NCBI RefSeq assembly: GCF_050410795.1
Contig: NZ_CP191258.1
Span: 1,443,118-1,507,117, forward strand
Length of the DNA: 64,000 nt
Source: Fontivita pretiosa
GTDB lineage: Bacteria > Planctomycetota > Phycisphaerae > Tepidisphaerales > Tepidisphaeraceae
Direction: 5' to 3'
The position numbers were made by a program, and so were the translations under genes. Of this stretch, positions 10,615 through 45,873 are shown in pieces (the stretch's first letter is position 1; each line of letters starts with the position of its first letter). The notes beneath the pieces are model-generated. The model was not told the origin of the DNA. It saw nothing but the letters and a program-made list of their open reading frames with translations, and did no database searches.

Positions 10615-10644
10615 CAGATTGTCACCTTGTCATCCAGTCGTTCA

Positions 10645-11750: not shown

Positions 11751-11778
11751 CGCGCACCTCCGTCGTCAGTCGCTTCTG

Positions 11779-13832: not shown

Positions 13833-14100
13833 CGCGACGACTTCCTGGAACGTTTGCGGTTTCCGCGATTCGTGCGTGCTTTGCGTCTGCACGACCCCGC
13901 CGCAGGCTCCCACGCGCCCGAGCATTCACCAGCAGGAATGACCCGCACGGCCCGGGCGGAAACCTTGCCTGCGGTCCGGATCCATTCGACGTACCGTGCT
14001 CACCTTCCCGCCGTGCATTCTAAGCACAGCTTTGGGCAGGAAAAGCGGACTGTTCGGCTTTTTTTCGCGAATCGCGGCAACGGTATAATACTTTTGCCCG

Positions 14101-16438: not shown

Positions 16439-16456
16439 CGACGTCGCTGGACTGCC

Positions 16457-16930: not shown

Positions 16931-17988
16931 GCATGGCATACCTGAGTTTTGTTGCTGAAGAGATGCTATCAGACGACGCGCTCGTTCAGCTCACGCTCGA
17001 CTTTGCGGCGCGATTCCCACGCCTGGCTCCCCAGGAGATCGGGTTGAAGCCGGAAGCGGTCAGATTCGATTCCGCCAGGCTCAAATCGGTGCTGACCCCG
17101 GAGCGACTGGAGTTCGGTTGGAGTTGGAGACGAAGTAGACCTGACATAGAAGGTCGCAGATCGCGCGACCCCCGTGATGGGGACGAGAATGAGTACCTCT
17201 CCATCGACTTGGATCATGTCGAGCAGCAGGAACTGCTCGAGGTGGCCGAGTGGTATGCCCAGCGGGTGCGACTGGCATACGCTCACATCCATGTCCTGTC
17301 CGAGCCGGAGGCGCAGCATGCGGCCGCGCGAGGTTTGGCCTTCCTGGGAATATCGCCTCAGGCTCACAAAGATCCCCAGGCATGGAGCTACTACCCGCGG
17401 AATCTGAATCAGCTCTGCAACGGCATTCCCGACCTGTGCTGGGTGACGGTCTTCGGGCCGATGTACGTCCGTCACTTTGGTCGCGAGCGGCTGCTGTCGG
17501 CCCCGGCGCCGGTCGTGCGCGAGATCGCGACGGATACCATCCTGCTGCAACTGAGCCACAGCTACACTGAGGTCGCCACGGACTGGGAGAAGTTCAATGC
17601 CACGCGCGAGGCGGTCATCGACCATCTCGGCCGCGAGTGCTTCAACCGCGTGCGCACGCCCAGCGATCCCCCACCCAGCGGACAGCGCGACGCACGGCTC
17701 GTGGATGTGGATCCGCGTTTCATCCCGCGGGAGTTGATGCCCCGGCGACAGAAGTTTCTCGCCGCCGCCTCGACTCCGCCCGAAGCCCTGCCCCCGCCGC
17801 TGACTAGCCTTGAGGAAATGCTCGCGCACGTTGGCCGACTGAAGGTGATAACGATCATGGGTTCGCGCGTCCTGATCGATAAGGAGCGAAAGGAGCTGAT
17901 CGGGTTCGCCGATCCGAAACTGGCCGAGGAATGGATCGACAAGCTCATCGCCGCCGGGGTGGAGGCGCAGGGGACGAGTCAACGGTGA
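16915..17988 (+). CDS. 357-aa hypothetical protein, cassette copy 2
   Basis: Identical domain architecture to copies 1 and 3; protein-like composition, whereas the opposing 506-aa minus ORF is R/G/P-rich low complexity. Confidence 0.6.
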   Translation: MALGIGMAYLSFVAEEMLSDDALVQLTLDFAARFPRLAPQEIGLKPEAVRFDSARLKSVLTPERLEFGWSWRRSRPDIEGRRSRDPRDGDENEYLSIDLDHVEQQELLEVAEWYAQRVRLAYAHIHVLSEPEAQHAAARGLAFLGISPQAHKDPQAWSYYPRNLNQLCNGIPDLCWVTVFGPMYVRHFGRERLLSAPAPVVREIATDTILLQLSHSYTEVATDWEKFNATREAVIDHLGRECFNRVRTPSDPPPSGQRDARLVDVDPRFIPRELMPRRQKFLAAASTPPEALPPPLTSLEEMLAHVGRLKVITIMGSRVLIDKERKELIGFADPKLAEEWIDKLIAAGVEAQGTSQR

Positions 17989-18006
17989 CGACGTCGCTGG
18001 ACTGCC

Positions 18007-18480
18007 GTGCGAGTCCGTTGGGCGCCACCCGGCCGCCTTCTGGCTGCCAAGCGGGCGGCCCAAATGATCCAGAACGCGGCCGCGGGGATGAAGTTCCAGA
18101 ATGAGATGCGACTGCTTTTGCGGGAGGTGGAGCAACTGGACGTGCCGGCGAAAAAGCGATTCTTCGACGTGGTCCTCGCTACGGGCAGGGCGCGGCGAAC
18201 GTTTCCCGATGTCGTGATCGCCGGGCAGAGCATGATCGAAATCAAGCGAGTACAATCGCTGCAACTGACCGACCAGTTCAGAGCACAGATCCAGGCGGCG
18301 AAAGAGCATGGATTGAATTATCGGATCATCGTTTCGGATACCCTGGTTGGAGATCCGCATCCAGACCTTACGGGTCTGATGAGGGACCTGCTCTTGAACC
18401 GGGCCAACGGAAAGACCGCGAGCATCGAAAAGTACGACAGCATTCAGAGGAAGCTGGTGAAGATATGGCCCTTGGAATAG
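18007..18480 (+). CDS. 157-aa PD-(D/E)xK-like small protein, cassette copy 3
   Basis: Identical to copy 2 except the C-terminal DPHPDLTGLMRD segment. Confidence 0.55.
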   Translation: MRVRWAPPGRLLAAKRAAQMIQNAAAGMKFQNEMRLLLREVEQLDVPAKKRFFDVVLATGRARRTFPDVVIAGQSMIEIKRVQSLQLTDQFRAQIQAAKEHGLNYRIIVSDTLVGDPHPDLTGLMRDLLLNRANGKTASIEKYDSIQRKLVKIWPLE

Positions 18481-19538
18481 GCATGGCATACCTGAGTTTT
18501 GTTGCTGAAGAGATGCTATCAGACGACGCGCTCGTTCAGCTCACGCTCGACTTTGCGGCGCGATTCCCACGCCTGGCTCCCCAGGAGATCGGCCTGAAGC
18601 CCAACACGGTCAAAGTTGACCCCCGGACGCTCAAAGCGGCGCTGACACCGGAGCGGCTGGATGACGGCTGGCATTGGAGGCGACGTAAGCCTGACGTACG
18701 AGGATGCAGGTCACGCTTTCGCAGTGAGGGCGACGAGCATGAGTACCTCTCCATCGACTTGGATCATGTCGAGCAGCAGGAACTGCTCGAGGTGGCCGAG
18801 TGGTATGCCCAGCGGGTGCGACTGGCATACGCTCACATCCATGTCCTGTCCGAGCCGGAGGCGCAGCATGCGGCCGCGCGAGGTTTGGCCTTCCTGGGAA
18901 TATCGCCTCAGGCTCACAAAGATCCCCAGGCATGGAGCTACTACCCGCGGAATCTGAATGAGCTCTGCAACGGCATTCCCGACCTGTGCTGGGTGACGGT
19001 CTTCGGGCCGATGTACGTTCGGCACTTCGGTCGCGATCGGCTGCTGTCGGCCCCGGCGCCGGTCGTGCGCGAGATCGCGACGGATACCATCCTGCTGCAA
19101 CTGAGCCACAGCTACACTGAGGTCGCCACGGACTGGGAGAAGTTCAATGCCACGCGCGAGGCGGTCATCGACCATCTCGGCCGCGAGTGCTTCAACCGCG
19201 TGCGCACGCCCAGCGATCCCCCACCCAGCGGACAGCGCGACGCACGGCTCGTGGATGTGGATCCGCGTTTCATCCCGCGGGAGTTGATGCCCCGGCGACA
19301 GAAGTTTCTCGCCGCCGCCTCGACTCCGCCCGAAGCCCTGCCCCCGCCGCTGACTAGCCTTGAGGAAATGCTCGCGCACGTTGGCCGACTGAAGGTGATA
19401 ACGATCATGGGTTCGCGCGTCCTGATCGATAAGGAGCGAAAGGAGATGATCGGTTTTGCCGATCCGAAACTGGCCGAGGAATGGATCGACAAGCTCATCG
19501 CCGCAGGCGTGGAGGCGCAGGGGACGAGTCAACGGTGA
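18465..19538 (+). CDS. 357-aa hypothetical protein, cassette copy 3 (mosaic variant)
   Basis: ~99% identical to copy 2, except a ~160-bp patch (codons ~45-95) that is strongly divergent at both synonymous and non-synonymous sites. Confidence 0.6.
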   Translation: MALGIGMAYLSFVAEEMLSDDALVQLTLDFAARFPRLAPQEIGLKPNTVKVDPRTLKAALTPERLDDGWHWRRRKPDVRGCRSRFRSEGDEHEYLSIDLDHVEQQELLEVAEWYAQRVRLAYAHIHVLSEPEAQHAAARGLAFLGISPQAHKDPQAWSYYPRNLNELCNGIPDLCWVTVFGPMYVRHFGRDRLLSAPAPVVREIATDTILLQLSHSYTEVATDWEKFNATREAVIDHLGRECFNRVRTPSDPPPSGQRDARLVDVDPRFIPRELMPRRQKFLAAASTPPEALPPPLTSLEEMLAHVGRLKVITIMGSRVLIDKERKEMIGFADPKLAEEWIDKLIAAGVEAQGTSQR

Positions 19539-19687
19539 CGCGGTGCAAGGGCAAAGCCGCTGCGGTGCAGGAGATGAGAGTTCCGTGCGACCGAGGCCCT
19601 CGCCGGCTGGCTCATCGTGCGACGTTGCAGCAGAACCATCTGCTGATTCTGCCCTCTGCCCTCATCCCTCTGCCCTCATCCTTGTAT

Positions 19688-20737
19688 TCACTGCGTCGGA
19701 TCCACCCGATGCGTGATGCTTCCCGGCGGCGGACAGACGAATTCCCTGATCGGCCGCGGCTCGAGCTTCGCCGGGTCGATCACCACATGCCCGATCGTCC
19801 GCCGCTTGAACGTGTAGGCGATGTGCACCAGTCCGTCGGCCGTCTGGATCACGCACGGATACGAGTATTGTCCGGGCGGCTCGTCCTGGATGATCGCGGC
19901 GGCTTGCCAGGTTCTTCCGTCGCGCGAGATCGCCACGTTCAGCGGATACCGCACCTTCTCCAGATTCGAGTGGTTGTAGACCAGCAGGTGCGTCCCGTCG
20001 CGCAGCGTCGTCGCGTCGATCCCGGAGTTGCAGTTGGGCAGGTCGGTCAGCGCCAGCGGCGACCACGTCGCCCCGCCGTCGCGCGACCAGGTCTCGCAGA
20101 TCCGCCCCACCGTCGTCCGCCCCAGCGCCTGAAGAACCGTCTGCGAATGGATCAGGATCGTCGGCTGCGTTGCCTTGGGGATGATCGAGCGGTCCTGCTC
20201 GACCCAGGGCATCGCCGACCACGTGTTGCCGTTGTCTGTGCTGCACTCAAAATACAGGCGCCAACCGGATTCCGATTCAACGCTCGTCGGGACCAGGATC
20301 ATGCTGCTCTCAAGCTGCACCGGCTTGTTCTTCGCCGGGCCGATGAGGTTTGGCCCGACGCGCCGGGCGGCGCTCCACGTGTGCCCTTCGTCGCCGGATC
20401 GTTTGAGCATGCCCCACCACTTCGACGGCGACGGCCCGACCTTGTAGAACAGCAGCATCGGGCCATTGCGGGGCTTGAACAGCACCGGGTTCCAGCAGGG
20501 ATAGCGCGAGCCATCCGGCTCGATTCCCTCGGCGGTCAGCACCGGCGCCGACCATCGCCCGTCGCGCAGGTGGCAGGTCCAGATCGACGCATCGGGCTTG
20601 CCCTCGCCGCTGCCACCAAAAAACGCCGCCACGACATGCCCGGGCGCCGGCTCGCATAGCGTCGCCGCATGACACGACGGAAACGGCGCCGTGCCGATCT
20701 CGTAGATGAACCCGCTGTGGATGATGCCTGCTTTCAT
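19688..20737 (-). CDS. BNR/Asp-box repeat sialidase-like (GH33-like) beta-propeller protein
   Basis: Four Asp-box motifs SxDxGxTW (SGDEGHTW, STDNGNTW, SRDGGATW, SRDGRTW); start at MKAGII. Confidence 0.8.
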   Translation of the reverse strand: MKAGIIHSGFIYEIGTAPFPSCHAATLCEPAPGHVVAAFFGGSGEGKPDASIWTCHLRDGRWSAPVLTAEGIEPDGSRYPCWNPVLFKPRNGPMLLFYKVGPSPSKWWGMLKRSGDEGHTWSAARRVGPNLIGPAKNKPVQLESSMILVPTSVESESGWRLYFECSTDNGNTWSAMPWVEQDRSIIPKATQPTILIHSQTVLQALGRTTVGRICETWSRDGGATWSPLALTDLPNCNSGIDATTLRDGTHLLVYNHSNLEKVRYPLNVAISRDGRTWQAAAIIQDEPPGQYSYPCVIQTADGLVHIAYTFKRRTIGHVVIDPAKLEPRPIREFVCPPPGSITHRVDPTQ

Positions 20738-20787
20738 TGCTGAACAAACTTCGCACACCCTCTGCGCAATATCGTCAAGACACGCAA

Positions 20788-22518
20788 TCAGCCCTGCTTC
20801 GCTATCGTGCTGAGCGTATCCACGTTGTTGTTCAGGTCCTTCCAGTCCACCTTCTTCGTGGGATCGATGTTATGGATGAACTTCTCGATGTTGGTGTAGC
20901 CGTCGCCGTTGAGGTCGCCGCTGGCGTCGGAGGCGTCGTTGGGGTTCAATCCGTACTTTGTCTCCCACTCATCGGGCATGCCGTCGCTGTCGCTGTCCTT
21001 GTACGGCGTGCCCTGGTATTGCGGATAACCTCCGACGTCGCGCGGATCGGTGATGATGCCCTTCTCGACCAGAGCGGCGATTCGCTGGATCACCTCATCG
21101 CGATAGCCGACCTTGCTCAGCTCCTCGGCCAGGTTCATGCTCGGCTTGGCGCTGACCCGGCCGCTGCGCACCATCTCGACGACGCGCTGATCGACCGCAT
21201 CGCGCCTGGGCAGCGTGGCGCCGGCGTTGGCGAGCACTTTTTCGAACGCTTCGGCGGCGGTGTCGATCGGCGGCGCCGGGGGCATGGGCAGCGGCTGTTT
21301 GGCGCGCGCTTTGGGCAAATTGGCCTGGGCGCGCCGGGCGGCCTCGGGGTCGCGGGCGGCGTCGTCCTCGTCCATGTGCTGCACGCCGCCGGCCCAGTTG
21401 TCCGCCGTCACCTTCTCGTTGCCTTCGACGATGTTGCCTTCAACGTAGAAGTTGGGCCTCACCTCGCGATCCGTCCGCTCCAGCCCCTCGCGCTGCACGA
21501 TGCGGTAGCCGACGGCCTGGTCCTTGGGCGTGGCCGGGCCGGGCTTGTAGTAGCAGTTGATCACGTTGACGGTGTTTCCCCCGCCAGCCCCATCCATCGT
21601 CCGGTGCCGCCAGTTGAACAACACGTTGTTGACCCAGTTGAAGTCGCCGGTCATGCCGATGCTGGGATTTCGTCCTGTATTGCAGGCATAGAGATTGTGG
21701 TGGAACAGCGTATTCCGCCCGCCCAGCGTGCTGCCGAACGCGTGATTGTAGGTGTTCAATCCCTCGCTGGAGATCGACCACTGGATGGTGAGGTTGACGG
21801 TGGGCAGCTTCTGTGCCCGCCCGCCGTCGGGCGGCTGATACATGTGCCGGTACATCGACATGTTCTCATCCAGTCCCCAGCTCGCCGACACGTGATCGAT
21901 GATCACGTTGCCGACGGGATTTCCGCCCAGCGAGTCGTTGCGATCGCCGACCCAGGTGTTTCCGCGGCGGAAGCGCATGTGGCGGATGACCACATCGTGG
22001 GTTTCGATTTCGACGGTGTCGCCGGCGATGCACACGCCGTCGCCCGGCGCCGTGTTGCCGGCGATGGTGATGTACGGCGCGCGGATGCGGATGCGGTCTT
22101 TCAATCGGATGATGCCGGCGACATTGAAGACGACGATGCGCGGCCCGCCGGCTTCCAGCGCTTCACGGAAGGTTCCGGGGCCGGAGTCTTCAAGGGATGT
22201 CACGACGTACACCTTTCCGCCGCGACCGCCAAAGCTGTACATCCCTCCGCCCCAGGCGCCGGGGAAGGCAGGGATGCTGGCCTGCGGCAGATCCTGCGGT
22301 CGCGCAGCCCAAGGAATATACGGCTTGCCTTTGGTTTCCCAGTCCTTGATGACCGGCAGCGCGCGGGCGAAGGCTTCGTCGCTGCGCTGGTCGGAGGCGG
22401 CGCGGCGCGCGTTGGCCTCGGCCTCGAGCTGTGGCGAAAGCGTCGGGTATTGTGCAAACGTTAAGCCGCCTGCAAAAAGCCATGTGGCCACAAGCGCGCA
22501 CAGGAACGATCTTGTCAT
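20788..22518 (-). CDS. Secreted pectate-lyase-fold (right-handed beta-helix) protein with C-terminal Ca-binding Asp-rich repeats
   Basis: Signal peptide; beta-helix NxxxN/WxDH-like stretches (IIDHVSASWGLDEN); C-terminal DSDGMPDEWE...DLNGDGYTN dockerin/TSP3-like Ca loops. Confidence 0.75.
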   Translation of the reverse strand: MTRSFLCALVATWLFAGGLTFAQYPTLSPQLEAEANARRAASDQRSDEAFARALPVIKDWETKGKPYIPWAARPQDLPQASIPAFPGAWGGGMYSFGGRGGKVYVVTSLEDSGPGTFREALEAGGPRIVVFNVAGIIRLKDRIRIRAPYITIAGNTAPGDGVCIAGDTVEIETHDVVIRHMRFRRGNTWVGDRNDSLGGNPVGNVIIDHVSASWGLDENMSMYRHMYQPPDGGRAQKLPTVNLTIQWSISSEGLNTYNHAFGSTLGGRNTLFHHNLYACNTGRNPSIGMTGDFNWVNNVLFNWRHRTMDGAGGGNTVNVINCYYKPGPATPKDQAVGYRIVQREGLERTDREVRPNFYVEGNIVEGNEKVTADNWAGGVQHMDEDDAARDPEAARRAQANLPKARAKQPLPMPPAPPIDTAAEAFEKVLANAGATLPRRDAVDQRVVEMVRSGRVSAKPSMNLAEELSKVGYRDEVIQRIAALVEKGIITDPRDVGGYPQYQGTPYKDSDSDGMPDEWETKYGLNPNDASDASGDLNGDGYTNIEKFIHNIDPTKKVDWKDLNNNVDTLSTIAKQG

Positions 22519-22705
22519 GCCCTCAAACTCCTGTTGCTGATGGAGCCAGTCTGCGTTCCCGACGGCTGCGCGTCAAATCTCCGCCGCGGCGGCACAGTCG
22601 CACGAGTCCTGTGCAGAAACACGCCACTCTGTGACACGGGCGTCTCGCCGGTGCGGGCGATCAGACCATGTGCGGGATGCCCGTGAAAAAAAAGGCGCGA
22701 AGTGG

Positions 22706-33548: not shown

Positions 33549-35384
33549 TCAGGGCGTTGACGAACCGCCTGATACGCCCGCCACCGCCGATGGTGAGTCG
33601 TCCAGCTTCATCTGATGCCTGGCCATGCGATAGTACAGCCCGCGTCTGGCGATCAGCTCGTGGTGTGTGCCCTGCTCGACAATGCGCCCTTCGTCCATGA
33701 CGAAGATCTGATCGCAGTCCGCGACGGTGCTGAGACGGTGACTGACGAGAATGATGGTTCGCTGGCGTTTGAGGCTTCGCAGCGTCTCGGTGATCATCTG
33801 CTCGTGCTGGGGATCCAGCGCGCTGGTCGGCTCGTCCATGACGATGATCGGCGCCTCGGTCAGCAGCGCCCGGGCGATGCTGATGCGCTGTTTCTGCCCG
33901 CCGGAGAGGTTCGATCCCGACTCGCTGATTTGCGTCTCGTACTTTTGCGGCAGTTTTTCGATGAAGCTTGCCGCCCCGGCCAGTTCCGCCGCGCGGCGGA
34001 TCTGGGCATCGGTGGCATCCGGCCGACCGTAGGCAATGTTCTCCGCCACCGTCGTCGGCAGAATCACGTTATCCTGCAGCACCAGGGCGACGTGTTTGCG
34101 CAGATCGGCGATTTTGATCTTGCGTGCATCGATGTCGTCCAGCTTCATCGCCCCGCCGGTCGGGTCGTAGAAGCGCGGCAGCAGATTCAGCAGGGTCGTC
34201 TTTCCGACCCCGCTGGAACCAACGAAGCCAACCATCTGTCCCGGAGAAATGCGGAAGCTGATCCCGCGAAGCACCGGCTCGCCGGGGCGATAGTGAAACT
34301 CGACATTCTCGAAAGCCAGCACGCGTGGCTTTCGCGGCAGGTGAATCGCATCCGGCGCGTCCTTGATCACCGGATCGCGATCCAGCACCTCGAACACCCG
34401 CTGCACCTGCGCCACGCTGCCCGCCAGGCTCGCCCCGCTGCCGCTGAGCTTGTTCAGCGGATCGTAAAGCTTCTCCAGGTAGATCAGGAACATGCTGAGC
34501 ATCCCCACTTTGAACGTCTGCGGCGACGTGTAGCTGAGGTACCCCCCATACGCCAGGATCGCGCACGACGCGACGGCGAAGATCGTGCCCAGGATGAACC
34601 AGTACATCACCTCATCCCAGTGCAAGCGCATCTTCACGCGGATGCTGTTGCCCTGTGTGGCCATGAAGTTCTCGAACTCGTCCTTCTCGCGGCCGAACGC
34701 CTGCACCAGCCCGATCGCCGCCACCGACCGCTGAATCGCCGTCGTGATCTGCGAATCGACCTCGTAGGACTGGGTATAGCGATCCTTGAGCAGCCGGGTG
34801 TAGTACCGGATCGTCACGACCAGAAACGGCACGACCGAAAGCGACACCAGCGTCAGCTTCCAGTTCATGCCGAACATGACCCAGGCCATGAAGCCGAGCG
34901 TCGCAAGGTTCACCAGGATTCCGATCAGCACGTTCAGCACGGATTGAAACCCCAGGCTGTCGTAGCTGAGGCGGTAAATCGCGTCGCCCTGAGGCTGGCT
35001 CTTGTGATACGCCAGGCTGAGCTGCTGAAGCTTGCGGAACAGATCGCAGCGGACGCGCATCATGCCGTTGTAGCCGATTCGGATATTGAGCATGGTCTGC
35101 GCGGTGCGGAGCAGCTCCGCGGCCATGCGGATCGCGAACATCAAAATCGCCAGCACGATGATCTGCTGCACCTTGTCCGCAGGGGCGTATTGCTGGAACA
35201 GCTCGTAGGGCAGGTATCGGGCGGTCGCGTCCCCGAGCACCACGTCGATCAGGATCGCCATCGGCATCGGCCAGAGCACGCCGAACAGCACCGACAGCCC
35301 CACCAGCAGGATCGAGGCGATGATCTTGCCGGCATCCTCGCGAAAGTAGGAGATGGCCCGCAGGTACAGACGCATGTCAAGCAT
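33549..35384 (-). CDS. ABC exporter, fused permease-ATPase (MsbA/NdvA-like)
   Basis: Six-TM N-terminal domain, Walker A GSSGVGKTT, signature LSGGQKQRISIARAL, Walker B IIVMDEPTSALD. Confidence 0.9.
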   Translation of the reverse strand: MLDMRLYLRAISYFREDAGKIIASILLVGLSVLFGVLWPMPMAILIDVVLGDATARYLPYELFQQYAPADKVQQIIVLAILMFAIRMAAELLRTAQTMLNIRIGYNGMMRVRCDLFRKLQQLSLAYHKSQPQGDAIYRLSYDSLGFQSVLNVLIGILVNLATLGFMAWVMFGMNWKLTLVSLSVVPFLVVTIRYYTRLLKDRYTQSYEVDSQITTAIQRSVAAIGLVQAFGREKDEFENFMATQGNSIRVKMRLHWDEVMYWFILGTIFAVASCAILAYGGYLSYTSPQTFKVGMLSMFLIYLEKLYDPLNKLSGSGASLAGSVAQVQRVFEVLDRDPVIKDAPDAIHLPRKPRVLAFENVEFHYRPGEPVLRGISFRISPGQMVGFVGSSGVGKTTLLNLLPRFYDPTGGAMKLDDIDARKIKIADLRKHVALVLQDNVILPTTVAENIAYGRPDATDAQIRRAAELAGAASFIEKLPQKYETQISESGSNLSGGQKQRISIARALLTEAPIIVMDEPTSALDPQHEQMITETLRSLKRQRTIILVSHRLSTVADCDQIFVMDEGRIVEQGTHHELIARRGLYYRMARHQMKLDDSPSAVAGVSGGSSTP

Positions 35385-35475
35385 GAGAAGCCGACAGGCT
35401 CAGAAGGCCGATGCGCGCAGGCCGCGAGCGTCCTCGCTTTCTCAACCTCTCAGCCTGTAATCCGATCATGATATC

Positions 35476-38151
35476 TCAAGCGATGGACGGCGTCTGCTCT
35501 TCCAGGTCGAGCTCTTCTTCGATCTCGACAGGTCTGGGCCTGCTGGTCTGCGCGGGCTGGGCGACGGGGATCGGGTCGAAGCCGACCTTCTCGGCGGCCT
35601 CGTCGATCAGGGCCATCACCGGCGGACCCACGACCGCCTTGTTCGACAGATACATCGCCCACAGGAACATGGGGATCAGGATCGCCGGTCTGCTGAACGG
35701 CCAGGGCAGAAACGCAAACAGCAGCCCGGTCATGATGAGGCTGGCAAAACTGAGCACCGAGCAGAACGTGCTGGGCAGCAGCTCGACTCTCACGCGAGTG
35801 AGCATTCCCCGCCCGTCGTGATGTTCGGACATCGTCGTCACGCGCACCTTCACGTACCGGCTGCCGTAGATCTCCATATCCCACTCGGCCCAGCCGGAAT
35901 CCAGGCGCATTCTCCAGCCGGCGGCGGCGACCTCCTCCTTGATCTTCTGGAGCAGCACGACGCGGTCGTGGTGGGTATTCCAGTATTGCAGCGTGCGTTT
36001 GCGCTTGGGATCCAGCGGCAGCGGGCGAGATCGCCTGCCCCGCTTGGCTTCGCGCTGGAGCACCTTGGCCTTCAGCCGCACCGAATACCGCGCCCACCCG
36101 CGGGCGATCGGCTGGCGGAAATGCAGCAGGGCGATCAGAGGCCGGCTCAGCCAGTGCCGGTGACGAGGCATCGGCGCCTGGATCGCCGCCACGATCGCCA
36201 GCACCACGGGCACGGCGAACATGAGCCCGGCCACCATCAGCAGCGGGGTAAACGCCAGCCCCAGCACCGCCACGAACGCGCTGAGCAGGTGCCACTCGAC
36301 GCTCATCAGCATCGCCGCCACCATCGAAGCCTGCCGGCGGTAGATGGTCTGGAACAGTCCCGAGCCGAACACGCCGTGGTAAATCACATCGCGCCCGATG
36401 CGCACGCCGATTCCGTCGCCTCCGTAGATTCGTCCGCGCCAACTGCTGGCGCCCAGCGTGTTGAAGTGGTCCGGGTGCTTGAACTTGAGCAGCGCCTCGG
36501 CCTCGCCGTAGCCACGCTGCTGCTTCAGGTACGCCTGCACGGTGTTTCGACGATAGTGCCAGACCTGCGCCGCCGGCGCAAAGCCGATCGTGTAGCCCAG
36601 GTGCTGCAATCGCCAGATGAAATCGACGTCATCGCCGGCCTTGCGGAACTGCGGGTCGAATCCGTTGATCAGCTTCGCCGCCCACGTGTAGAACGCCATG
36701 TTGCACCCGGGCACATGCTCGGCGGTGCGGTCGTCGATCATCACGTGTGTCGGCCCGCCGGGGCTCAGCCCCACGCAATCCGCGATCCACGAGCCTTCGT
36801 CGGGAATCAGGTTCGGCCCGCCCATCCCCACGTGTTTGCTCCGCAGCATCGCCAGCGCGAGGTAGTACAGCCAGTCTTCGTCGGCCTCGCAGTCGCTGTC
36901 GGTGTAGGCGATGATCTCGCCGGTCGCGGCGTTCATCCCCACGTTCCGGGCGTAGCTCAGGCCCATGTTCTTCTGGCGGATGTTGCGTACCCAGGGGAAC
37001 TTTTTGAGGATCTGCTGGGTGTTGTCGGTGCTGCCATCGTCGACGAAGATCACCTCGTAATCCGGATACCGCAGCCGCTGCATGGACCGCAGGCACGACT
37101 CGACCGTGCTGGCGCCGTTGTACGAGCAGATGATCACGCTGATTTTCGGCAGCTTCACGTCCGCCAGTTGCGGCGCGCGGTGATACAACTCCCGAATCGC
37201 ATGGAACGCCGGCTTGGGCGTGCGATCCTCCCGAACGATCCCGAACTTCCAGTCCGTGATCTGCCAGCCATGCGTGTACCACTCGTCGGTGTAGCTGAAG
37301 ATGAACGTGCCGGCCAGGCCTTCGTCGAACACCGCCCGCACGTGGTTGGCCAGGATCTCCGCCTGCTGCTGCTCGGTCTTTTCCCGATGCGTGTCGATTC
37401 CGTATTCGCCAAGCATCAGTGGCTTTTCCCCGGCGATGTGCTGGAGCCTGGCCAGGTAGTTGCGGAAAACCTGCTCGTCATGCAGGTAAACATTGAAGCA
37501 GACGAAGTCGATCTCTCGCGGCTGAAGATACTCGGTGGTCGGGAAGTTGGCGAAGGTCACCAGGCACTGCGGCGCCTCCTGCTTGACGATCCGCACCAGA
37601 TCGTCGACGAAATCCTCGACCCGCCTGCGCCCGTAATACCGCACCAGGTCCGCCGGAATCTCGTTGACCACGCTGATCGCAAAGATCGCCTCGTGATTGC
37701 CGCACGTGCGCGCCGCGTGCCGCACCGCCTGCTGCGCCTGTCGCGTCAACTCTGGATCATCCACAAACGACAGGTTCTTCGGCCAGGCCACGTCCAGAAA
37801 GATCTTCAGCCCCTTTCGGGCGGCCAGGTCCAGAAACCACTTCGGCGGCACGTGATAGATGCGGATGCAGTTGGCCCCCAGGTCCAGGATCTGCTCGAAG
37901 TCGCTTTCAACCTGTCCGGGATTCGGCAGCGGGTCTCCGTCGCGATTGGGCGCGAACGGCCCGTAGGTAACGCCCTTCACATAAAACTTCTGCGAACCCA
38001 GCCGAAAGAACTTGCCATCCCGACGCACGCGGTTGCTCAGCGGCTCGGCACGACGCTGACGACCCGCCGCGCCAGACGTACGCCCAGGCGCAGAAATGGG
38101 TTGCGAACAACCAGATCGACGCTCAACAACGGCAATGGACATAAGGCTCAC
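35476..38151 (-). CDS. Bifunctional glycoside-hydrolase-like (TIM barrel, GH17/GH-A-like) and GT2 glycosyltransferase membrane protein (NdvB-like beta-glucan synthase candidate)
   Basis: N-terminal TIM-barrel GH-like region; central GT2 motifs (ISVIICSYNG...DYEVIFVDDGSTD...DSDC...QxxRW-like); C-terminal multi-TM region. 891 aa, similar architecture to NdvB. Confidence 0.7.
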   Translation of the reverse strand: MSLMSIAVVERRSGCSQPISAPGRTSGAAGRQRRAEPLSNRVRRDGKFFRLGSQKFYVKGVTYGPFAPNRDGDPLPNPGQVESDFEQILDLGANCIRIYHVPPKWFLDLAARKGLKIFLDVAWPKNLSFVDDPELTRQAQQAVRHAARTCGNHEAIFAISVVNEIPADLVRYYGRRRVEDFVDDLVRIVKQEAPQCLVTFANFPTTEYLQPREIDFVCFNVYLHDEQVFRNYLARLQHIAGEKPLMLGEYGIDTHREKTEQQQAEILANHVRAVFDEGLAGTFIFSYTDEWYTHGWQITDWKFGIVREDRTPKPAFHAIRELYHRAPQLADVKLPKISVIICSYNGASTVESCLRSMQRLRYPDYEVIFVDDGSTDNTQQILKKFPWVRNIRQKNMGLSYARNVGMNAATGEIIAYTDSDCEADEDWLYYLALAMLRSKHVGMGGPNLIPDEGSWIADCVGLSPGGPTHVMIDDRTAEHVPGCNMAFYTWAAKLINGFDPQFRKAGDDVDFIWRLQHLGYTIGFAPAAQVWHYRRNTVQAYLKQQRGYGEAEALLKFKHPDHFNTLGASSWRGRIYGGDGIGVRIGRDVIYHGVFGSGLFQTIYRRQASMVAAMLMSVEWHLLSAFVAVLGLAFTPLLMVAGLMFAVPVVLAIVAAIQAPMPRHRHWLSRPLIALLHFRQPIARGWARYSVRLKAKVLQREAKRGRRSRPLPLDPKRKRTLQYWNTHHDRVVLLQKIKEEVAAAGWRMRLDSGWAEWDMEIYGSRYVKVRVTTMSEHHDGRGMLTRVRVELLPSTFCSVLSFASLIMTGLLFAFLPWPFSRPAILIPMFLWAMYLSNKAVVGPPVMALIDEAAEKVGFDPIPVAQPAQTSRPRPVEIEEELDLEEQTPSIA

Positions 38152-38351
38152 TTCCCTGCGCTTCCGTGCAGGCGGTCTACGGCAGGGTATCCTACGACAA
38201 CCCGTTCATTGTACCTACAAAATTCACGTCCCGCGGACAGCCGACACAAACTTCTCCCGCCCCCACCGCTTGCCGGCCACACAGCGACTCAGACACCCCC
38301 CATGATAGGTCCGTTAGCTCATCGTTATGGGACGGCGCCAATCAAACCATG

Positions 38352-39476: not shown

Positions 39477-41642
39477 TTACGGCACGTTGCTCACCACGTC
39501 GTTGGAGTCCTTGGAGATCACATCCGTGCCCGCGCCGCCATCAACCGTATCGATCACGCCGTCGAGCACGCGGATATCGTCGTTGCCCGCCTCGCCGAAG
39601 ATCACGTCCGCCCCCGCGCCGCCGGTGATCGTGTCGTTGCCCGCCCCTCCGAGGATGCGGTTGGCCCCGGAGTTGCCGGTCAGCACGTCGTTGCCCGCCC
39701 CGCCATAGATCCACTCCAGGTCATTGGCCAAGGCGTCATTCTCCCCGGTCTGTCCGTCGTTGGCCACGCCATCGAGCGAGACGTTGACCGCGGCGGTGCG
39801 GTCGGAGTAGTCGATGGTGTCGGTGCCGGCCCCGCCGATCACCGAGTCAGTGCCGGTGCCGGGGGTAATGAAGTCGTTGCCGTCGCCACCATTGAGCGTG
39901 TCGTTCCCGACGCCGCCTTCGAGGATGTCCCCGTTGCCGCCGCCCACCAGCGAATCGTTGCCGCCGCCTCCCTTGAAGAAGTTGCGCTCATTGTTGCCGA
40001 TGAAGATGTCTCCCCCGCCGCCGCCGAACAGGTTCTCCACGTCCGGCATGACGTTGTCTCTTTCACTCTTGGACACGCCATCGTTGGCCACGCCGTCGAG
40101 CGTGACCGTCACCGCGCGGGAGGACTCATAGTAGTAGTCGGCGCGGTCGCGTCCGGCGCCGCCGTTGAACACGTCGGTGCCGCTGCCGCCCAGCAGCGCG
40201 TCGTTGCCGTCTCCACCGTTGAGCAGGTCGTTGCCGATGCCCGCATTGATCCGGTCATCTCCGGCGCCGCCGTTGAGCGTGTCGTTGCCGGCGATCCCGA
40301 GCAGGAAGTCATTGCCCGCCCCGCCGTCCATCGAGTCGTTACCGTCGTGCCCGGTGAGCCGGTCGTTTCCGGCCCCGCCCAGCAGCGTATCGTCGCCCGC
40401 CTCGCCCCAGACGGTGTCGTTGCCGTCGCCGCCGTCCAGACTGTCATTGCCGATTCCACCGAACAGCGCGTCATCCGCCGCGCCGGTGCTGATCGTGTCG
40501 GCGCCATCGCCGCCCTCGACGCGGTCGCGTCCGGTTCCGCCGGTGATCGAGTCGTTCTCCGTGCCGCCGCGGATGATGTTGTTGCCCGAGGCATCGGTGA
40601 TGACATCGGCGCCGGCGTCGCCGTCGATCGTGTCGTTATCCGCCCCGCCGTTGAGGTTGTCGGCGCCTTCGTTGCCGCGGATCACGTCATTGCCGGCTTC
40701 CCCGAGGATCGTGTCGTTGCCAAGCTGCCCGAAGAGGCTGTCGGCGCCGGCCCCGCCGGTGATCGAATCATTGCCGTCACCGCCCTGGACCGAGTCATCC
40801 CCGTCGCCGCCGGTGATCACGTCGTTTTCGCTCGAGCCCAGCAGGATATCGTTGCCGACATCGCCGTTGATCGTGTCGTTGTGGGTTCCGCCGTCGATGC
40901 TGTCGTCGCCGGAGCCGCCGTCGATGCTGTCGGGGTTGTTTCCGCCGGTGATGGTGTCGTTGCCGGCCCCGCCCTGGATGAAGTCATTGCCTTCGCCGCC
41001 GATGATCGAGTCGTTGCCGTCGCCACCGGACGCCCCGCGGAACGCCGCCAGCGCCACGCTCAGGTCGATCGTATCGTTGCCCGACCCGCCGACGATCGTC
41101 TCCACCGTCATCAGGACGTTGTCATTCTCCCCGCTCTCGCCGTCGTTGGCGACGTCGTCCATGAGGATCGTCAGATCGGCGTTGCGCGAGGCGTAGGTGA
41201 CGGTGTCGAGGTTGTCCCCGCCGTCCATGATGTCAGCACCCGCGCCGCCGTCGATCAGGTCGTTGCCGCCATTGCCCAGGATGCTGTCGTCCCCGTTGCC
41301 ACCGTTGATCGTGTCATCGTTGTCCGATCCGGAGATGGTGTCGTTGCCGTCGCCGCCGTTGAACGTGATGTTGCCGGTATCCGGCGCGGCGCTGAGGGTG
41401 TCGTTGCCGCCCAGTCCGTTGATCTCGATCGTCGCGAAGTAGTTCGGATCGGCGGTGTTGAAAATGATGTCAAAGCGCGTCTCCACGCCATCGATGACGA
41501 CCACCGCCTCTTCGGGGCTGACGGTGTGGTCGATACTCAGGCTGATGGTGTTGTCCGTTCCGTCACCATCAATGACCAGAACGTCGCGGGCATCGTCAAT
41601 TGAAGCGGCAAGAAGCCGGCGTTTTTCAAGGGACTCAAACAT
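39477..41642 (-). CDS. RTX/hemolysin-type Ca-binding repeat protein (paralog 1)
   Basis: Dozens of GGxGxDxL/I/V nonapeptide repeats. Start set at MFESLEKRRLLAAS, which has an AAGGAG RBS; the tool start is 62 codons upstream with no RBS. Ends ...DVVSNVP. Confidence 0.8.
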   Translation of the reverse strand: MFESLEKRRLLAASIDDARDVLVIDGDGTDNTISLSIDHTVSPEEAVVVIDGVETRFDIIFNTADPNYFATIEINGLGGNDTLSAAPDTGNITFNGGDGNDTISGSDNDDTINGGNGDDSILGNGGNDLIDGGAGADIMDGGDNLDTVTYASRNADLTILMDDVANDGESGENDNVLMTVETIVGGSGNDTIDLSVALAAFRGASGGDGNDSIIGGEGNDFIQGGAGNDTITGGNNPDSIDGGSGDDSIDGGTHNDTINGDVGNDILLGSSENDVITGGDGDDSVQGGDGNDSITGGAGADSLFGQLGNDTILGEAGNDVIRGNEGADNLNGGADNDTIDGDAGADVITDASGNNIIRGGTENDSITGGTGRDRVEGGDGADTISTGAADDALFGGIGNDSLDGGDGNDTVWGEAGDDTLLGGAGNDRLTGHDGNDSMDGGAGNDFLLGIAGNDTLNGGAGDDRINAGIGNDLLNGGDGNDALLGGSGTDVFNGGAGRDRADYYYESSRAVTVTLDGVANDGVSKSERDNVMPDVENLFGGGGGDIFIGNNERNFFKGGGGNDSLVGGGNGDILEGGVGNDTLNGGDGNDFITPGTGTDSVIGGAGTDTIDYSDRTAAVNVSLDGVANDGQTGENDALANDLEWIYGGAGNDVLTGNSGANRILGGAGNDTITGGAGADVIFGEAGNDDIRVLDGVIDTVDGGAGTDVISKDSNDVVSNVP

Positions 41643-41864
41643 CGTACATCGCTCCTTCTGACAAGAGGGTCCGCGCCACAGCCCTGCGGCGCGCACGCAA
41701 ACACTGTGACCAGCAGACAAACAGGTTATCGGAAAGATCGGACCGGTTTGATGAACCTGTCCGCTTGGAACACCAGGAACCTCAGGAAGCACTTTCGATG
41801 ACCCGGGCCACGCACTCGGTTCGCTCATTGTGCCCCACGAATCGGGGGCGCGACGGGAAAATCA

Positions 41865-41890
41865 ACAAAAAAACTGCCGCTTTTCGGCCC
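41865..41890 (-). terminator. Possible intrinsic terminator between the two RTX genes
   Basis: GCCG-aaaag-CGGC followed by AGUUUUUUUG on the minus transcript; the stem is only 4 bp. Confidence 0.3.
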
Positions 41891-42015
41891 ACCATCCGCC
41901 GGCATGAGCACAGCAGCACATTTATGCCGCCGGCGCCGATCATGCAAAGCTTTTATCGGACCTGCGCCGTCAACACCGCGGCCCGCCCCAGCGATTCCGC
42001 CAAGGCCGCCCTGAA

Positions 42016-45000
42016 CTACGGCACGTTGCTCACCACGTCCAGACCCGAATCCTCCAGCAGATCGTCGGTCCCCGTCCCGCCATCGATCCGGTCTGCCGTG
42101 CCGTCGTTGGCGTGGATCAGGTCATCGCCTTCACCGGCGAACAGGAAATCGCGCCCGAGCCCGCCGTTCAGATAATCATTGCCCGAGCCGGCCCGCAGCG
42201 TGTCGTTGCCCGCCCCGCCGTACAGCTTCGTGCTGCGCGTCCGGTGCCCGCGCAACGCGTCGTTGCCGCTGCCGCCGATCAGGACTTCGATGTCGTTATC
42301 GAGCTTGTCAAACTCCCCCGCGCCGCCGTCGTTGGCCAGTTCATCCAGCGACAGCGACAGGTTATCGCTGCGATCTGAATAATCCGCGGTGTCCGTGTTC
42401 TTGCCGCCGATGAACCGGTCCGGGCCACTGCCGCCGTTCAGCAGGTCGCTGCCGTTCATTCCGTTCAGCGTGTCGGAGCCGGCCCCGCCATACAGCGAGT
42501 CGTGTCCGTCCATGCCGATAAGCAGATCGTTGCCCTGACGACCGTCCAGGATGTTCGCGCGAGCGTTGCCGGTCAAAATGTCGTTGCCACGACCGCCTTC
42601 CAGATGCTCCACCGTTGCATCGATCAGGTCGGCCTCCGCGAACACGCCGTCGTTGGGCAGACCATCGAGCGAGGCGGTCACCGGCCGCGTCTCGTAGTAG
42701 TAGCTGACCCGGTCGGATCCGGCGCCGCCGATCATGGTGTCGGTGCCGCTGGCGCCGATGATCGTGTCGTCGCCCGCGCCGGCGTCGATCGAGTCGTTGT
42801 CCGGCCCGGCATGCAGCCGGTCGGCGCCGCTGCCGGAACTGATCGTATCGGCGCCCGAACCGCCGTAGACGATGTTGTCACCATCTCCGGCCGTCAGCGT
42901 GTCGCTGCCGGCCCCGCCGTCGATGTAGTCCGCCCCCGCCCCGCTGGAGACGCTGTCGTCTCCCTCTGCCGCCGTGATCGTGTCGTTGCCCGCGCCCGTG
43001 GTGATCGTGTCGTTACCGTCGCCGGCCGGGACGCTGTTGTTCCCGTCCCCGGCGCTGATCGCGTCGTCTCCGCTGCCGCCGTTGATCGTGTCGTTGCCCG
43101 CTCCGCTCGAGACCGTGTCCCGGCCGTCACCGGCATCGATGGTGTTGTTGCCCGCGGCGGCGGCAATGGTGTCGTCGCCGGCGCCCGCATCGATCACGTC
43201 GTTGCCCGAGCCGCTGGAGATCGTGTCGTTGCCCTCGGCGCCGATGATCCGGTTGTTGCCGTTGTCGCCGCTGAGCCGGTCGTCGCCGGCCCCGCCATCC
43301 AGCGTGTCATCCCCGCCGCTGCCCACCAGCGTATCGTTGCCCATCCCGCCGATGAACCGCCGAGCCTGGCTGGACGGCCCGGCCTGAATCCGGTCGTTGC
43401 CTGTCCCACCGATGACCGTCTCCACCGAGTCCTCGACGTTGTCGCCTTCTCCCGGCGAGCCGTCGTTGGACAGGTTGTCCATGATCACGGTCACGCCGCC
43501 GGTGCGATCGGAGTAATCGATCAGGTCGTTGCCGTTGCCGCCGTCGAACGTGTCGGCGCCCAGCCCGCCGTTGAGCGTATCGTCGCCGTCGCTGCCAACC
43601 ACCAGGTCGTTGCCATCGCCGCCGTCGATCGAGTCGTTGCCGGCGTTGCCGTTGAGGATGTCCTGCCCGCTGCCGCCGATCAGGGTATCTCCCGAGCTGC
43701 CGCCGGAGAGCGTATCGTGCCCGTCATTGCCCTCGATGCGCACGCGGAAGGTTGCCGCACCCAGATCGATATCGTCGTCGCCGCTGCCCCCGAACACCGT
43801 TTCGACGAACGTGACGTTGTCGTTCTCGCCGGCTTCGCCGTCGTTGGCCACGTCGTCCAGCGTGACATTGACTCCGGTCGTGCGGTCGGAGTAATCGACC
43901 ACATCTCCGCCACTTGGCCCGCCGTTGATGATGTCGGCTCCCGCGCCGCCGTCGAGCGTGTCGCTGCCCGCGTTGCCGTAAAGGGTGTCGTTGCCTCCGC
44001 CCGCGATGATCGAGTCGTTTCCGGCTCCTCCGATCAGCTCGCGCGATACGTTGTCGGTGATGTTGATCAGGGTGTCACTCCCCGAGCCGCCGATCACACG
44101 CTCGATCGTCTCGGTGACAAAGTCCATCTCCCCGGATTGACCGTCGTCATGGATGTCGTTGAAGATGACGGTGATCGCGGCGGTGCGACGGGAATAGTCG
44201 GCGGTATCGAAGCCCGCATCGCCCTGGAGTGTATCGGCCCCGTTGAGCGCGTCGCCGTCGTTAAGCCAGTCGTCTCCCCCTCCGCCGGTGACCAGGTCGT
44301 CTCCGCCATCGCCAGCCAGGCTGTCGTTGCCGACCGTGACCGCGTCGGTGAAATCCTGAAGGTCTCCGTGCAGCGTGTCGTTGCCATCGCCACCGAAGAT
44401 CGTGTCGTTGCCGGCGCCACCTTCTACACTGTCGCTACCCCCACCCGCGTTGATCCAGTCGTTCCCATTTTCGCCGACGATGCCGTCGTCACCGTTGCCG
44501 CCGAGAATCGAATCATCTCCATTGCCGGCTTCGACAGCGTCCGCTCCCCCGCCCGCGTCGATCGTGTCATCGCCTGCGCCGGCGATGATCGAATCTCCTC
44601 CTTCTCCACCCAGGATGCTGTCGTCCTGGTCGCCTGTGGTGATCGTATCGCTGCCGCCGTTGCCGATGACCGTGACGCTGTATCCCAGGGCAGCCACGTC
44701 GATGATGTCGTTACCCTCGCCTCCCTCGAACTGCTCAAACGTTGTAAGGTCCGGGTCGTCGAACTCCCGGACGAGGCGTGTGGGCTCACCATCAATGTCA
44801 ATCATCTCGGTATAACCGGTCCCCTGGAGCGCGGGTTCGTCTTCCCCCGCCCCATCGGCGCCAAACAGCGGATTGGCAGGGATGGGATAGATGATGTCTA
44901 CATTGGGAATCTGCTCGCGTTCGTCGGCATAACTCAACAGGTCGATGCCGGCACCCCCATCCATCGTGTCCTGGCCCACGCCGCCGATGATGGTGTCATC

Positions 45001-45546
45001 GCCGGCATCGCCGCTCAGCACATCGCCATTCATCAACTGCGGATTGGTGTCCGGTTGCTCGCTATTTCCACCCCCATCAAGGCGATCGTTGCCGTCGCCG
45101 CCGGAGATCGTGTCTTGCCCACCGGTCTCATCGTTCAATTCGTCACCCGCGGCCTCTGACGTGTCGTCGCCGCGCAGGTCATCGTTACCCGTTCCGCCGG
45201 TGATCGAATCGTCCCCGGGTCCGCCGTAAACGGTGGTATTGCCATTTCCCGCGGTAACCGTGTCATTCCCGCCGCCGGCAACGATCGTGGCCGGAACAGT
45301 GATGTTCGACGCGATGGTGATGCTGTCGTCGCCACCGGTGCCGTTGATCCGGATCGCGGTGATCTGGTTGGCCGGGTATTGGGCATTAAACCCTTCGGGG
45401 CTGATGGTGACGGTATAGGTGGTAGCGTCGCGGATGATATTGAAGGTGGCGGTGGAGGGTGTGCTGTTGAGCGTCAGCACTCCATTGATGACCGACGCGG
45501 TAAGCAGATACCGGCTTTCAAGCGGATCGATGAAGGACGAGGACAT
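42016..45546 (-). CDS. RTX/hemolysin-type Ca-binding repeat protein (paralog 2, 1176 aa)
   Basis: Repeated GGAGNDT/GGSGND nonapeptides throughout; N-terminal DPLESRYLLTAS and C-terminal LDVVSNVP, both shared with paralog 1. Confidence 0.85.
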   Translation of the reverse strand: MSSSFIDPLESRYLLTASVINGVLTLNSTPSTATFNIIRDATTYTVTISPEGFNAQYPANQITAIRINGTGGDDSITIASNITVPATIVAGGGNDTVTAGNGNTTVYGGPGDDSITGGTGNDDLRGDDTSEAAGDELNDETGGQDTISGGDGNDRLDGGGNSEQPDTNPQLMNGDVLSGDAGDDTIIGGVGQDTMDGGAGIDLLSYADEREQIPNVDIIYPIPANPLFGADGAGEDEPALQGTGYTEMIDIDGEPTRLVREFDDPDLTTFEQFEGGEGNDIIDVAALGYSVTVIGNGGSDTITTGDQDDSILGGEGGDSIIAGAGDDTIDAGGGADAVEAGNGDDSILGGNGDDGIVGENGNDWINAGGGSDSVEGGAGNDTIFGGDGNDTLHGDLQDFTDAVTVGNDSLAGDGGDDLVTGGGGDDWLNDGDALNGADTLQGDAGFDTADYSRRTAAITVIFNDIHDDGQSGEMDFVTETIERVIGGSGSDTLINITDNVSRELIGGAGNDSIIAGGGNDTLYGNAGSDTLDGGAGADIINGGPSGGDVVDYSDRTTGVNVTLDDVANDGEAGENDNVTFVETVFGGSGDDDIDLGAATFRVRIEGNDGHDTLSGGSSGDTLIGGSGQDILNGNAGNDSIDGGDGNDLVVGSDGDDTLNGGLGADTFDGGNGNDLIDYSDRTGGVTVIMDNLSNDGSPGEGDNVEDSVETVIGGTGNDRIQAGPSSQARRFIGGMGNDTLVGSGGDDTLDGGAGDDRLSGDNGNNRIIGAEGNDTISSGSGNDVIDAGAGDDTIAAAAGNNTIDAGDGRDTVSSGAGNDTINGGSGDDAISAGDGNNSVPAGDGNDTITTGAGNDTITAAEGDDSVSSGAGADYIDGGAGSDTLTAGDGDNIVYGGSGADTISSGSGADRLHAGPDNDSIDAGAGDDTIIGASGTDTMIGGAGSDRVSYYYETRPVTASLDGLPNDGVFAEADLIDATVEHLEGGRGNDILTGNARANILDGRQGNDLLIGMDGHDSLYGGAGSDTLNGMNGSDLLNGGSGPDRFIGGKNTDTADYSDRSDNLSLSLDELANDGGAGEFDKLDNDIEVLIGGSGNDALRGHRTRSTKLYGGAGNDTLRAGSGNDYLNGGLGRDFLFAGEGDDLIHANDGTADRIDGGTGTDDLLEDSGLDVVSNVP

Positions 45547-45873
45547 CGTTGCAGTACTCCTGGTGCAGGTGGTGGTCTTGGCCCGGTGCCGGACTGCGCC
45601 GCGGGCGCACGGCCCATCGCTCGGAGGCTGGCCAGGGCGTTGAGCGGCCGGCCGGAACTCCGCCGGTCCAGGCCGGCGCGTCGCAGGCGCGTAACTATCG
45701 GATTCTAACCGAGCCTGTCAACCAACCGCGCCTCGCCTGCCCCTCTCGCGACAAGCCCTGCGGCCAACCCGTCCAGCCGCAGGCGACAGCGCACCGCGCG
45801 CCCGAGCACCTGACCGCTTCCGGTGCTAGAGTCTCCGCCCCGACCGTTCCGATTTCGCTTTTCCGGAAGAATT

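Follow-up and report, generated by a model that had tools for sequence, protein, structure and literature searches.

Two tandem genes of Fontivita pretiosa (Planctomycetota, Phycisphaerae, Tepidisphaeraceae), here called P1 and P2, encode repeats-in-toxin (RTX) proteins that share a short N-terminal motif and the C-terminal end ...DVVSNVP. They lie in a stretch of 64,000 nucleotides (64 kb) on contig NZ_CP191258.1 (assembly GCF_050410795.1, positions 1,443,118 to 1,507,117, forward strand), which was analysed as a whole and is referred to as the window. An earlier note on this DNA had taken the common C-terminus for a dedicated secretion or sorting signal. Our analysis points in another direction: we think it fairly likely that P1 and P2 are exported proteins of the PF07595 type, probably Ca2+-binding β-rolls at the cell surface or outside the cell, in which the N-terminal motif would serve export and the tail would cap the roll, and that their role is structural or adhesive. 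Judged by sequence, the N-terminal motif is the one already described in Pfam as PF07595, 'Planctomycete extracellular' (Planc_extracel), and the tail is one of the forms taken by a C-terminal RTX module of wide distribution.

N-terminal motif and predicted fold of P1 and P2

Both genes were verified as minus-strand open reading frames (ORFs; Table 1) with the common N-terminal motif and the DVVSNVP end that the earlier note had described. P1 begins with MFESLEKRRLLAAS and P2 with MSSSFIDPLESRYLLTAS; within the whole window, no other long ORF has LExRxLL at its start. The AAGGAG ribosome-binding site that had been read in front of P1 is present. A longer P1 ORF extends up to position 41828, but its use is unlikely because homologues begin with M[IF]ExLExRxLL.

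With the PF07595 hidden Markov model (HMM), P1 scored 20.0 bits as a full protein and 25.3 bits (E = 1.1e-5) when the N-terminus was searched alone, at a gathering cut-off of 25.5, and its first 15 residues cover profile positions 6–20 of 20. The model did not match P2, although the LExRxLL core is kept there. Across 13 aligned homologues E6 and R8 are invariant, while L5 and L11 are nearly so. The motif starts at index 4–6 in 29 of 43 RTX relatives, making the short leaderless form the commonest. The NCBIfam model NF012209 (LEPR-XLL, cut-off 17 bits) gave no match in P1, P2 or two RTX relatives; among the five N-terminal segments searched (P1, P2 and three from the related loci L001 and L003), only that of a non-RTX neighbour protein of L003 matched, with 6.6 bits.

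Neither protein showed a Sec-type hydrophobic signal-peptide core in its first 40 residues, which bears out the earlier note on this point: the highest Kyte–Doolittle mean over 10 residues was 0.8 for P1 and 1.7 for P2, as against 1.9–3.2 for three Sec-type homologues. When residues 1–142 of P1 were modelled with AlphaFold2 (AF2), residues 1–10 formed a low-confidence coil (predicted local distance difference test, pLDDT, ~52), followed by a small β domain with strands from residue 12 and by the β-roll from about residue 82. According to this model, the first 10 residues of P1 are a flexible, non-hydrophobic extension bearing the L-E-x-R-x-L-L core. Such a coil in front of a β domain would look like the form expected of a recognition peptide.

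A motif of this kind, RRLxxExLExRxLLA, was reportedly described in Rhodopirellula baltica by Studholme et al. in 2004 and proposed to be an export signal specific to planctomycetes. Tuwongella immobilis has 52 proteins with an equivalent motif, LxLExLExRxxP; 20 of these were detected by proteomics, eight of them in the sodium dodecyl sulfate (SDS; envelope) fraction only, and the motif was interpreted as a planctomycete-specific export signal (PMC8567305). Other authors have likewise handled PF07595 as a signal-peptide family (PMC10952558). Like P1 and P2, the PF07595 proteins of R. baltica and T. immobilis have the LExRxLL core right at the N-terminus and are large, repeat-rich and presumably extracellular proteins that lack a classical hydrophobic signal peptide. 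P1 and P2 differ from them in that the Arg-rich leader is missing (profile positions 1–5 are absent, and the motif is placed at residue 2–5), in that the P2 version is too divergent for the HMM, and in their host, which belongs to the Phycisphaerae and not to the Planctomycetia. Of the distinct export or anchoring route suggested in the earlier note, one part stands: the N-terminal motif is plausibly tied to non-classical export, an idea that dates from 2004. The tail did not hold up as the mark of such a route.

The body of both proteins is made up of GGxGxD nonapeptides, as the earlier note had observed. The Pfam family HemolysinCabind (PF00353; cut-off 23 bits) matched P1 with 321 bits in 20 stretches and P2 with 427.6 bits in 22 stretches, and the repeats are visible in the DNA as a 27-nt periodicity. 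P1 and P2 share 44% identity over 679 aa. A parallel β-roll was predicted by AF2, and Foldseek matched it to the RTX region of CyaA and to serralysins with a probability of 1.00. On these models, P1 and P2 are RTX β-roll proteins, and their repeats indicate that they probably bind Ca2+. We propose that the N-terminal motif, not the tail, would direct export and that Ca2+ outside the cell would then drive folding of the roll. A structural or adhesive function, in a surface layer or matrix, appears most likely because no catalytic domain is present.

C-terminal tail of the RTX array

The last 175 aa of P1 (residues 547–721), modelled with 14 aligned homologues, gave an all-β structure with a pLDDT of 90.9. 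Its strands are spaced ~9 residues apart and continue to residue 172 of 175; the tail itself contributes strands 162–165 (VISK) and 170–172 (VVS), and pLDDT values over the last blocks reach 91–98. Neither a helix nor a separate C-terminal domain was present in this model. The sequence register agrees with such an assignment: the last canonical GGxGxD lies 15–16 residues before the C-terminus, EDSGLDVVS of P2 falls into the GGxGxDxUx register at G4, D6 and U8, and KDSNDVVS of P1 is the same element minus one residue. In the alignment of the 14 homologues (A2), D166 of the tail is invariant and D169 at least 90% conserved, while NVP is conserved less. The tail is therefore best read, on the AF2 model, as the last degenerate RTX nonapeptide ([K/E]DSx(L)DVVS) plus NVP, forming the last two strands of the β-roll. 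An alternative reading as a truncated internal linker (DYSxRTxxVxV... or ...DxVxxDVExLxGG) was plausible by eye; its register is one residue off that of E-type tails, and it was not used.

Foldseek ranked RTX blocks IV–V of CyaA first among PDB structures (E = 4e-6), followed by serralysin β-rolls. Bordetella CyaA blocks IV–V (PDB 6sus/5cxl) resemble P1 and P2 as a GGxGxDxUx β-roll interrupted by linkers, and folding of CyaA block V requires the C-terminal end, or cap, of the array (PMC9120197). This requirement gives structural grounds for the end of an RTX array to be conserved and is the basis on which we read the tail as a cap: it may have been kept since it finishes and caps the last Ca2+-binding turns. 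CyaA differs from P1 and P2 in having toxin domains, a distinct cap and a downstream type I secretion system (T1SS) signal, and in being secreted by CyaBDE, whereas P1 and P2 lack toxin domains, carry the N-terminal motif and stop three residues past the degenerate nonapeptide. The serralysin or alkaline protease structures 1kap, 1sat and 1k7g are similar in their β-roll (TM ~0.57 over ~123 residues). The NCBIfam serralysin models matched P1 and P2 through the repeats only (138–147 bits against a cut-off of 500), and unlike serralysins the two proteins have no metalloprotease domain, no Asp-plus-hydrophobic end and no linked genes for an ATP-binding cassette (ABC) protein, a membrane fusion protein (MFP) and an outer-membrane protein (OMP).

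No Pfam or NCBIfam model matched the tail of P1 or P2. A search of 1.84 billion cluster representatives with a 40-position tail profile (A1) retrieved 1441 proteins (cluster representatives) at E <= 1e-3, and the best matches lay mostly at the extreme C-terminus. They share a common module, DGxxDxxDGGxGxDxxxxDxxDxVxx, with three endings: [VI]E plus 2–5 residues, CE plus a few residues, or a terminal [VI]P. The E/CE forms, found in 'calcium-binding proteins' of many metagenomes, agree with the tails of P1 and P2 in register and in their conserved Asp and Gly positions, but in place of the final Pro of P1 and P2 they carry Glu (or Cys-Glu) and a few further residues. Most carriers of the E/CE forms bear Sec-like signals: 24 Sec-like N-termini stood against five of the LExRxLL type. 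Since T1SS substrates do not bear ordinary signal peptides, the module as such is not a T1SS signal. For the P-ended form the counts were 10 LExRxLL N-termini against one (Fisher p = 3e-5 against the E/CE forms, a comparison that takes no account of kinship), an association that may reflect nothing but planctomycetal ancestry. Both the P-ended variant and the end module appear to be unnamed in Pfam and NCBIfam and, on present evidence, structural. The earlier note had named motifs confined to the two paralogs as a finding that would undo its proposal; this is not the case, both motifs being widespread.

The sequence [N/S/A][V/I]P closes 10 of 14 LExRxLL proteins in which the RTX array extends to the C-terminus. 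The other four, from syntenic or similar loci, end in ...DIVQ, ...NVENVS, ...DTVV and ...VIQNA, so that the terminal residues are common but dispensable. In the loci surveyed first, the module was found in all nine RTX-ended LExRxLL proteins and in none of the six non-RTX ones (p = 2e-4), and it was absent from two RTX proteins with extra C-terminal domains. As judged from these proteins, the tail goes with an RTX array that reaches the C-terminus, not with the N-terminal signal. The proposal of a dedicated secretion or sorting signal is thus not upheld: the β-roll is modelled to the very end, the module also occurs behind Sec-like signal peptides, it is restricted to RTX-ended proteins and it varies at syntenic loci. 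Its premise, that a conserved C-terminus is what an RTX secretion signal should look like, is itself weak, T1SS signals not being conserved in primary sequence (PMC8870123).

Table 1. Positions of the features discussed (numbering of the window) and C-terminal ends at related loci
Feature	Position	Strand	Remarks
P2, upstream RTX gene	42016-45546	minus	1176 aa; ORF; almost all GGxGxDxUx nonapeptides plus five inter-block linker modules
P1, downstream RTX gene	39477-41642	minus	721 aa; ORF; N-terminal motif, small β domain, RTX blocks with three linker modules, tail
P2 motif LESRYLLTAS, residues 9-18	45493-45522	minus	divergent planctomycete extracellular motif; regular-expression match
P1 motif LEKRRLLAAS, residues 5-14	41601-41630	minus	PF07595 profile positions 6-20
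AAGGAG ribosome-binding site	41652-41657	minus	9 nt 5' of P1 ATG; read from sequence
Sigma-70-like promoter match TTGACA-16-GATAGT	45694-45721	minus	~150 nt 5' of P2; consensus match only, 10/12 positions
P2 tail EDSGLDVVS+NVP	42019-42054	minus	degenerate RTX nonapeptide (G4, D6, U8 kept) plus NVP; alignments A1 and A2, analogy with P1 model
P1 tail KDSNDVVS+NVP	39480-39512	minus	modelled as final β-roll strands (AF2)
23-nt exact repeat GACGTGGTGAGCAACGTGCCGTA, P1 3' end	39478-39500	minus	repeat family D12
Second copy of GACGTGGTGAGCAACGTGCCGTA, P2 3' end	42017-42039	minus	exact repeat, 23/23 nt
ABC protein	33552-35399	minus	MsbA-like; 392 bits, MsbA profile 2-570 of 572
L001/L002 tails (Tepidisphaeraceae GCA_035545895.1)			...DTVINVP, ...DTLISIP
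L003 tails			...DLVSNVENVS, ...DSNDIVQ
L087 tails			...DTISNVP, ...DLLTSIP; contig not reaching lipA
L088 tails			...GLDTVV, ...DTITNVP, ...ATILNVP
Tails of unlinked examples			L084 ...DVIIAIP; L089 ...ADVIQNA; L090 ...DPVINVP

Relatives, 3' ends and rival explanations

The window neighbours of the gene pair are housekeeping genes (EF-G, argG, dnaX, lipA, ubiD and ymdB). LipA of the window showed 77–81% identity to metagenome-assembled genomes of the Tepidisphaeraceae and Tepidisphaerales and at most 65% beyond that group; together with synteny, this places the window in the Tepidisphaeraceae. Tandem arrays of LExRxLL-RTX genes were found near lipA at L001/L002, L003 and L088, and a similar array occurs in L087 (Table 1). 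No RTX ORF was found beside lipA in the best LipA matches L004–L016 (Tepidisphaerales), and the array is therefore present in some lineages only. Homologues were collected with full-length P1 as the query, a C-terminal query of 127 aa having reached only proteins shorter than about 1.75 times its own length. In full-length BLASTP, P2 scored highest with the first genes of the syntenic L001 and L003 arrays, and these long first genes scored best with one another; the N-terminal domain of P1 was most similar to L087_1, L001_2 and L003_2. These scores suggest that the duplication giving P1 and P2 is older than the split of at least three genomes.

Some of these loci hold further features. At L088 (13184–17610) the long copy is followed by tandem RTX genes of 696 and 697 aa, whose N-termini, MFVENLETRRLLAAS and MFVEDLEQRRLLAAS, are very similar and which both end in NVP; by their likeness the two arose through another, later duplication within that lineage. 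A prepilin-type gene (N_methyl, FTLVELLVV...) directly follows the RTX array at L001 (10985–12037), L003 (12444–13427) and L087 (11509–12543), and an opposite-strand metallophosphoesterase gene takes its place in the window. L084 (positions 1428–11005 of a 129-kb contig of ENA ERZ505514) has at least four consecutive genes with clear LExRxLL-type starts, encoding a lysyl oxidase, an S8 peptidase, an unknown protein and an RTX protein; in the SdrD_B-repeat gene, which lies among them, the motif is reduced to a weaker ...ESRQHL form. This run resembles a small 'secretome island', in which the ...AIP tail is found on the RTX protein only.

The 3' ends of P1 and P2 share an exact 23-nt repeat, GACGTGGTGAGCAACGTGCCGTA, which runs through the final seven codons to the second base of the stop codon; in the DNA on either side, identity is only ~60%. 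At the eight positions of identical residues that precede the repeat, all codons differ, and given identical residues the codon usage of P1 and P2 yields P ~0.004 for seven out of seven identical codons. The codons of the tail differ in other genomes, so that the nucleotide sequence is under no general constraint. The exact identity of seven residues and 23 nt is likely a short gene-conversion tract or a chance of descent, that is, an accident of this lineage. It overstates the constraint on the tail and is no sign of a specially constrained signal. Conversion from P2 to P1 is not needed as the source of the tail residues, P1-like genes of L087 and L088 also ending in NVP when the genes are regrouped by N-terminal domain.

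Genes of the HlyB/HlyD/TolC type were absent from the 64-kb window, in line with the earlier note, which had found none adjacent, and neither HlyB-type ABC genes nor HlyD genes nor genes for TolC-type outer-membrane efflux proteins (OEP) occurred within ±10 kb at L001, L003, L084, L087, L088, L089 and L090. The nearest ABC exporter that the note had placed at 33.5–35.4 kb does exist; its match to HlyB begins only at profile position 176, the N-terminal C39 peptidase or C39-like domain (C39/CLD) region being absent, and it is MsbA-like. It lies directly downstream of a 909-aa fusion of a TIM barrel resembling glycoside hydrolases (GH), a family 2 glycosyltransferase (GT2) and a membrane region (33552–38205, minus strand). 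By its domains, this couple looks like a pair for synthesis and export of a polysaccharide or glucan, not like a protein exporter. The T1SS signal of the HlyA class occupies the last 50–60 residues and needs an amphipathic helix (PMC8870123). In P1 and P2 no such signal was found after the repeats: the AF2 model of P1 has no helix there, and the proteins end in NVP in place of the Asp-plus-hydrophobic end seen in 28 of 61 signal-less alphaproteobacterial RTX matches. Searches for C-terminal sorting domains (PEP-CTERM, LPXTG and the C-terminal domain of type IX secretion substrates) gave no Pfam or NCBIfam match; there is no hydrophobic or basic segment, and the terminal Pro stands three residues past the last repeat.

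These results bear on several other explanations of the gene pair. RTX repeats are the hallmark of T1SS substrates, P1 and P2 have no Sec signal peptides, T1SS genes need not be linked to their substrates and an ABC exporter is encoded 4 kb away; the RTX array and tail could hence be an atypical signal for ABC, MFP and OMP components encoded elsewhere in the genome. We hold this to be very improbable. P1 and P2 have no post-repeat segment of 50–60 residues and no predicted helix in the last 175 aa of the P1 model (criteria of PMC8870123), their tail has no Asp-plus-hydrophobic end, and the same module is found behind Sec-like signal peptides. The nearby ABC protein matches MsbA from end to end, lacks the C39/CLD region of HlyB and adjoins the GT2/GH fusion, and no HlyD or OEP gene was seen in the window or within ±10 kb at the seven other loci. 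A further explanation would have the common termini result from paralogy alone, with an identical tail left by recent gene conversion. The 3' ends, identical at 23 of 23 nt after eight identical residues that all differ in codon, and the differing tail codons of other genomes speak for it, but the BLAST scores suggest that the duplication came before at least three genomes diverged, each of the two motifs turns up in numerous unrelated contigs and clusters, and across 14 homologues the tail keeps its Asp residues with little or no variation. Paralogy is thus scarcely credible as a full account, and survives only for the exact seven-residue identity.

Somewhat more has to be said of the [N/S]-[V/I]-P end, which could be a genuine second signal that co-evolved with LExRxLL, for instance for a factor of processing, anchoring or quality control, on a planctomycete-specific route. 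The P-end is enriched among LExRxLL proteins (10:1, as against 5:24 for the E/CE forms; p = 3e-5), it is always exactly C-terminal and it is kept in 10 of 14 RTX-ended relatives. However, the association is confounded by phylogeny, the LExRxLL proteins being planctomycetal, and the P-end is missing in four of the 14 relatives, which come from syntenic or similar loci (endings IVQ, NVENVS, TVV and QNA). It never occurs on non-RTX LExRxLL proteins of the surveyed loci, the tail is modelled within the β-roll at high confidence, and there is no transmembrane or basic segment as in PEP-CTERM or LPXTG proteins. We consider such a second signal unlikely. In its most far-reaching form, the leaderless M-x-E-x-L-E-x-R-x-L-L start and the x-N-[V/I]-P end would be the two-ended signature of a Phycisphaerae-specific pathway for RTX export or anchoring, which we regard as very doubtful. 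Were it true, a surface-anchoring or processing factor would read the free Pro-ended turn, which also caps the β-roll, and the co-occurrence of 10:1 against 5:24 would reflect function, not ancestry.

We therefore keep to the reading of P1 and P2 as PF07595-type exported β-rolls with a capping tail. Several points weigh against it. P2 has no PF07595 score at all and P1 lies 0.2 bits below the curated cut-off, and we know of no experiment that connects motifs of the PF07595 type with a defined translocon. By the AF2 model the tail is able to prolong the roll, which leaves room for a second role of the tail; the strong association of the P-ended tail with LExRxLL N-termini could be functional coupling instead of common ancestry. 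The survey of T1SS genes covered only ±10 kb around eight loci, and the function as an adhesin or surface-layer protein was inferred only from the absence of other domains.

Other features of the window and implications

Sigma-70-like sites numbered two in the region against 0.7 expected, a terminator scan gave nothing near P1 and P2 that exceeded the shuffled expectation, and Rfam and tRNA scans of the window returned no matches. Elsewhere, positions 15092–19740 hold three tandem copies of a 1550-bp unit that are 98–100% identical over 300-nt probes; one localised divergent patch brings the overall identity of copies 2 and 3 down to 86%. Plus-strand ORFs of 357 and 157 aa, with a third-codon-position G+C content (GC3) of 0.73–0.75, are present in each unit. 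The 357-aa ORF has no Pfam match, and its copies diverge mainly at residues ~47–95. Such an arrangement may reflect either diversification of a gene array or an artefact of assembly. On the minus strand, a T2SSE-type secretion ATPase, a 970-aa TPR protein and two ExbD/TolR genes are clustered at 6379–11765, beside a 399-aa ORF (12729–13925, minus) with a sub-threshold vWA match (26.7 bits, cut-off 27). At 19691–22572 (minus), a BNR/sialidase-like protein adjoins a 594-aa protein with a weak PelZ-like pectate-lyase match, and these similarities suggest a small polysaccharide-degradation pair.

Neither the N-terminal motif nor the RTX fold is new in kind, nor is it new to find the two combined in planctomycetes; the finding is real but largely ordinary and leaves current understanding unchanged. 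RTX repeats in Planctomycetota are no safe evidence of type I secretion, and the C-terminal RTX end module described here is widespread and apparently unnamed. The locus bears on how planctomycetes export large surface proteins without Sec-type signal peptides. With it, the Tepidisphaeraceae gain a compact, conserved and syntenic set of substrates, short and nearly all RTX, which may be simple reporters for the PF07595 route.

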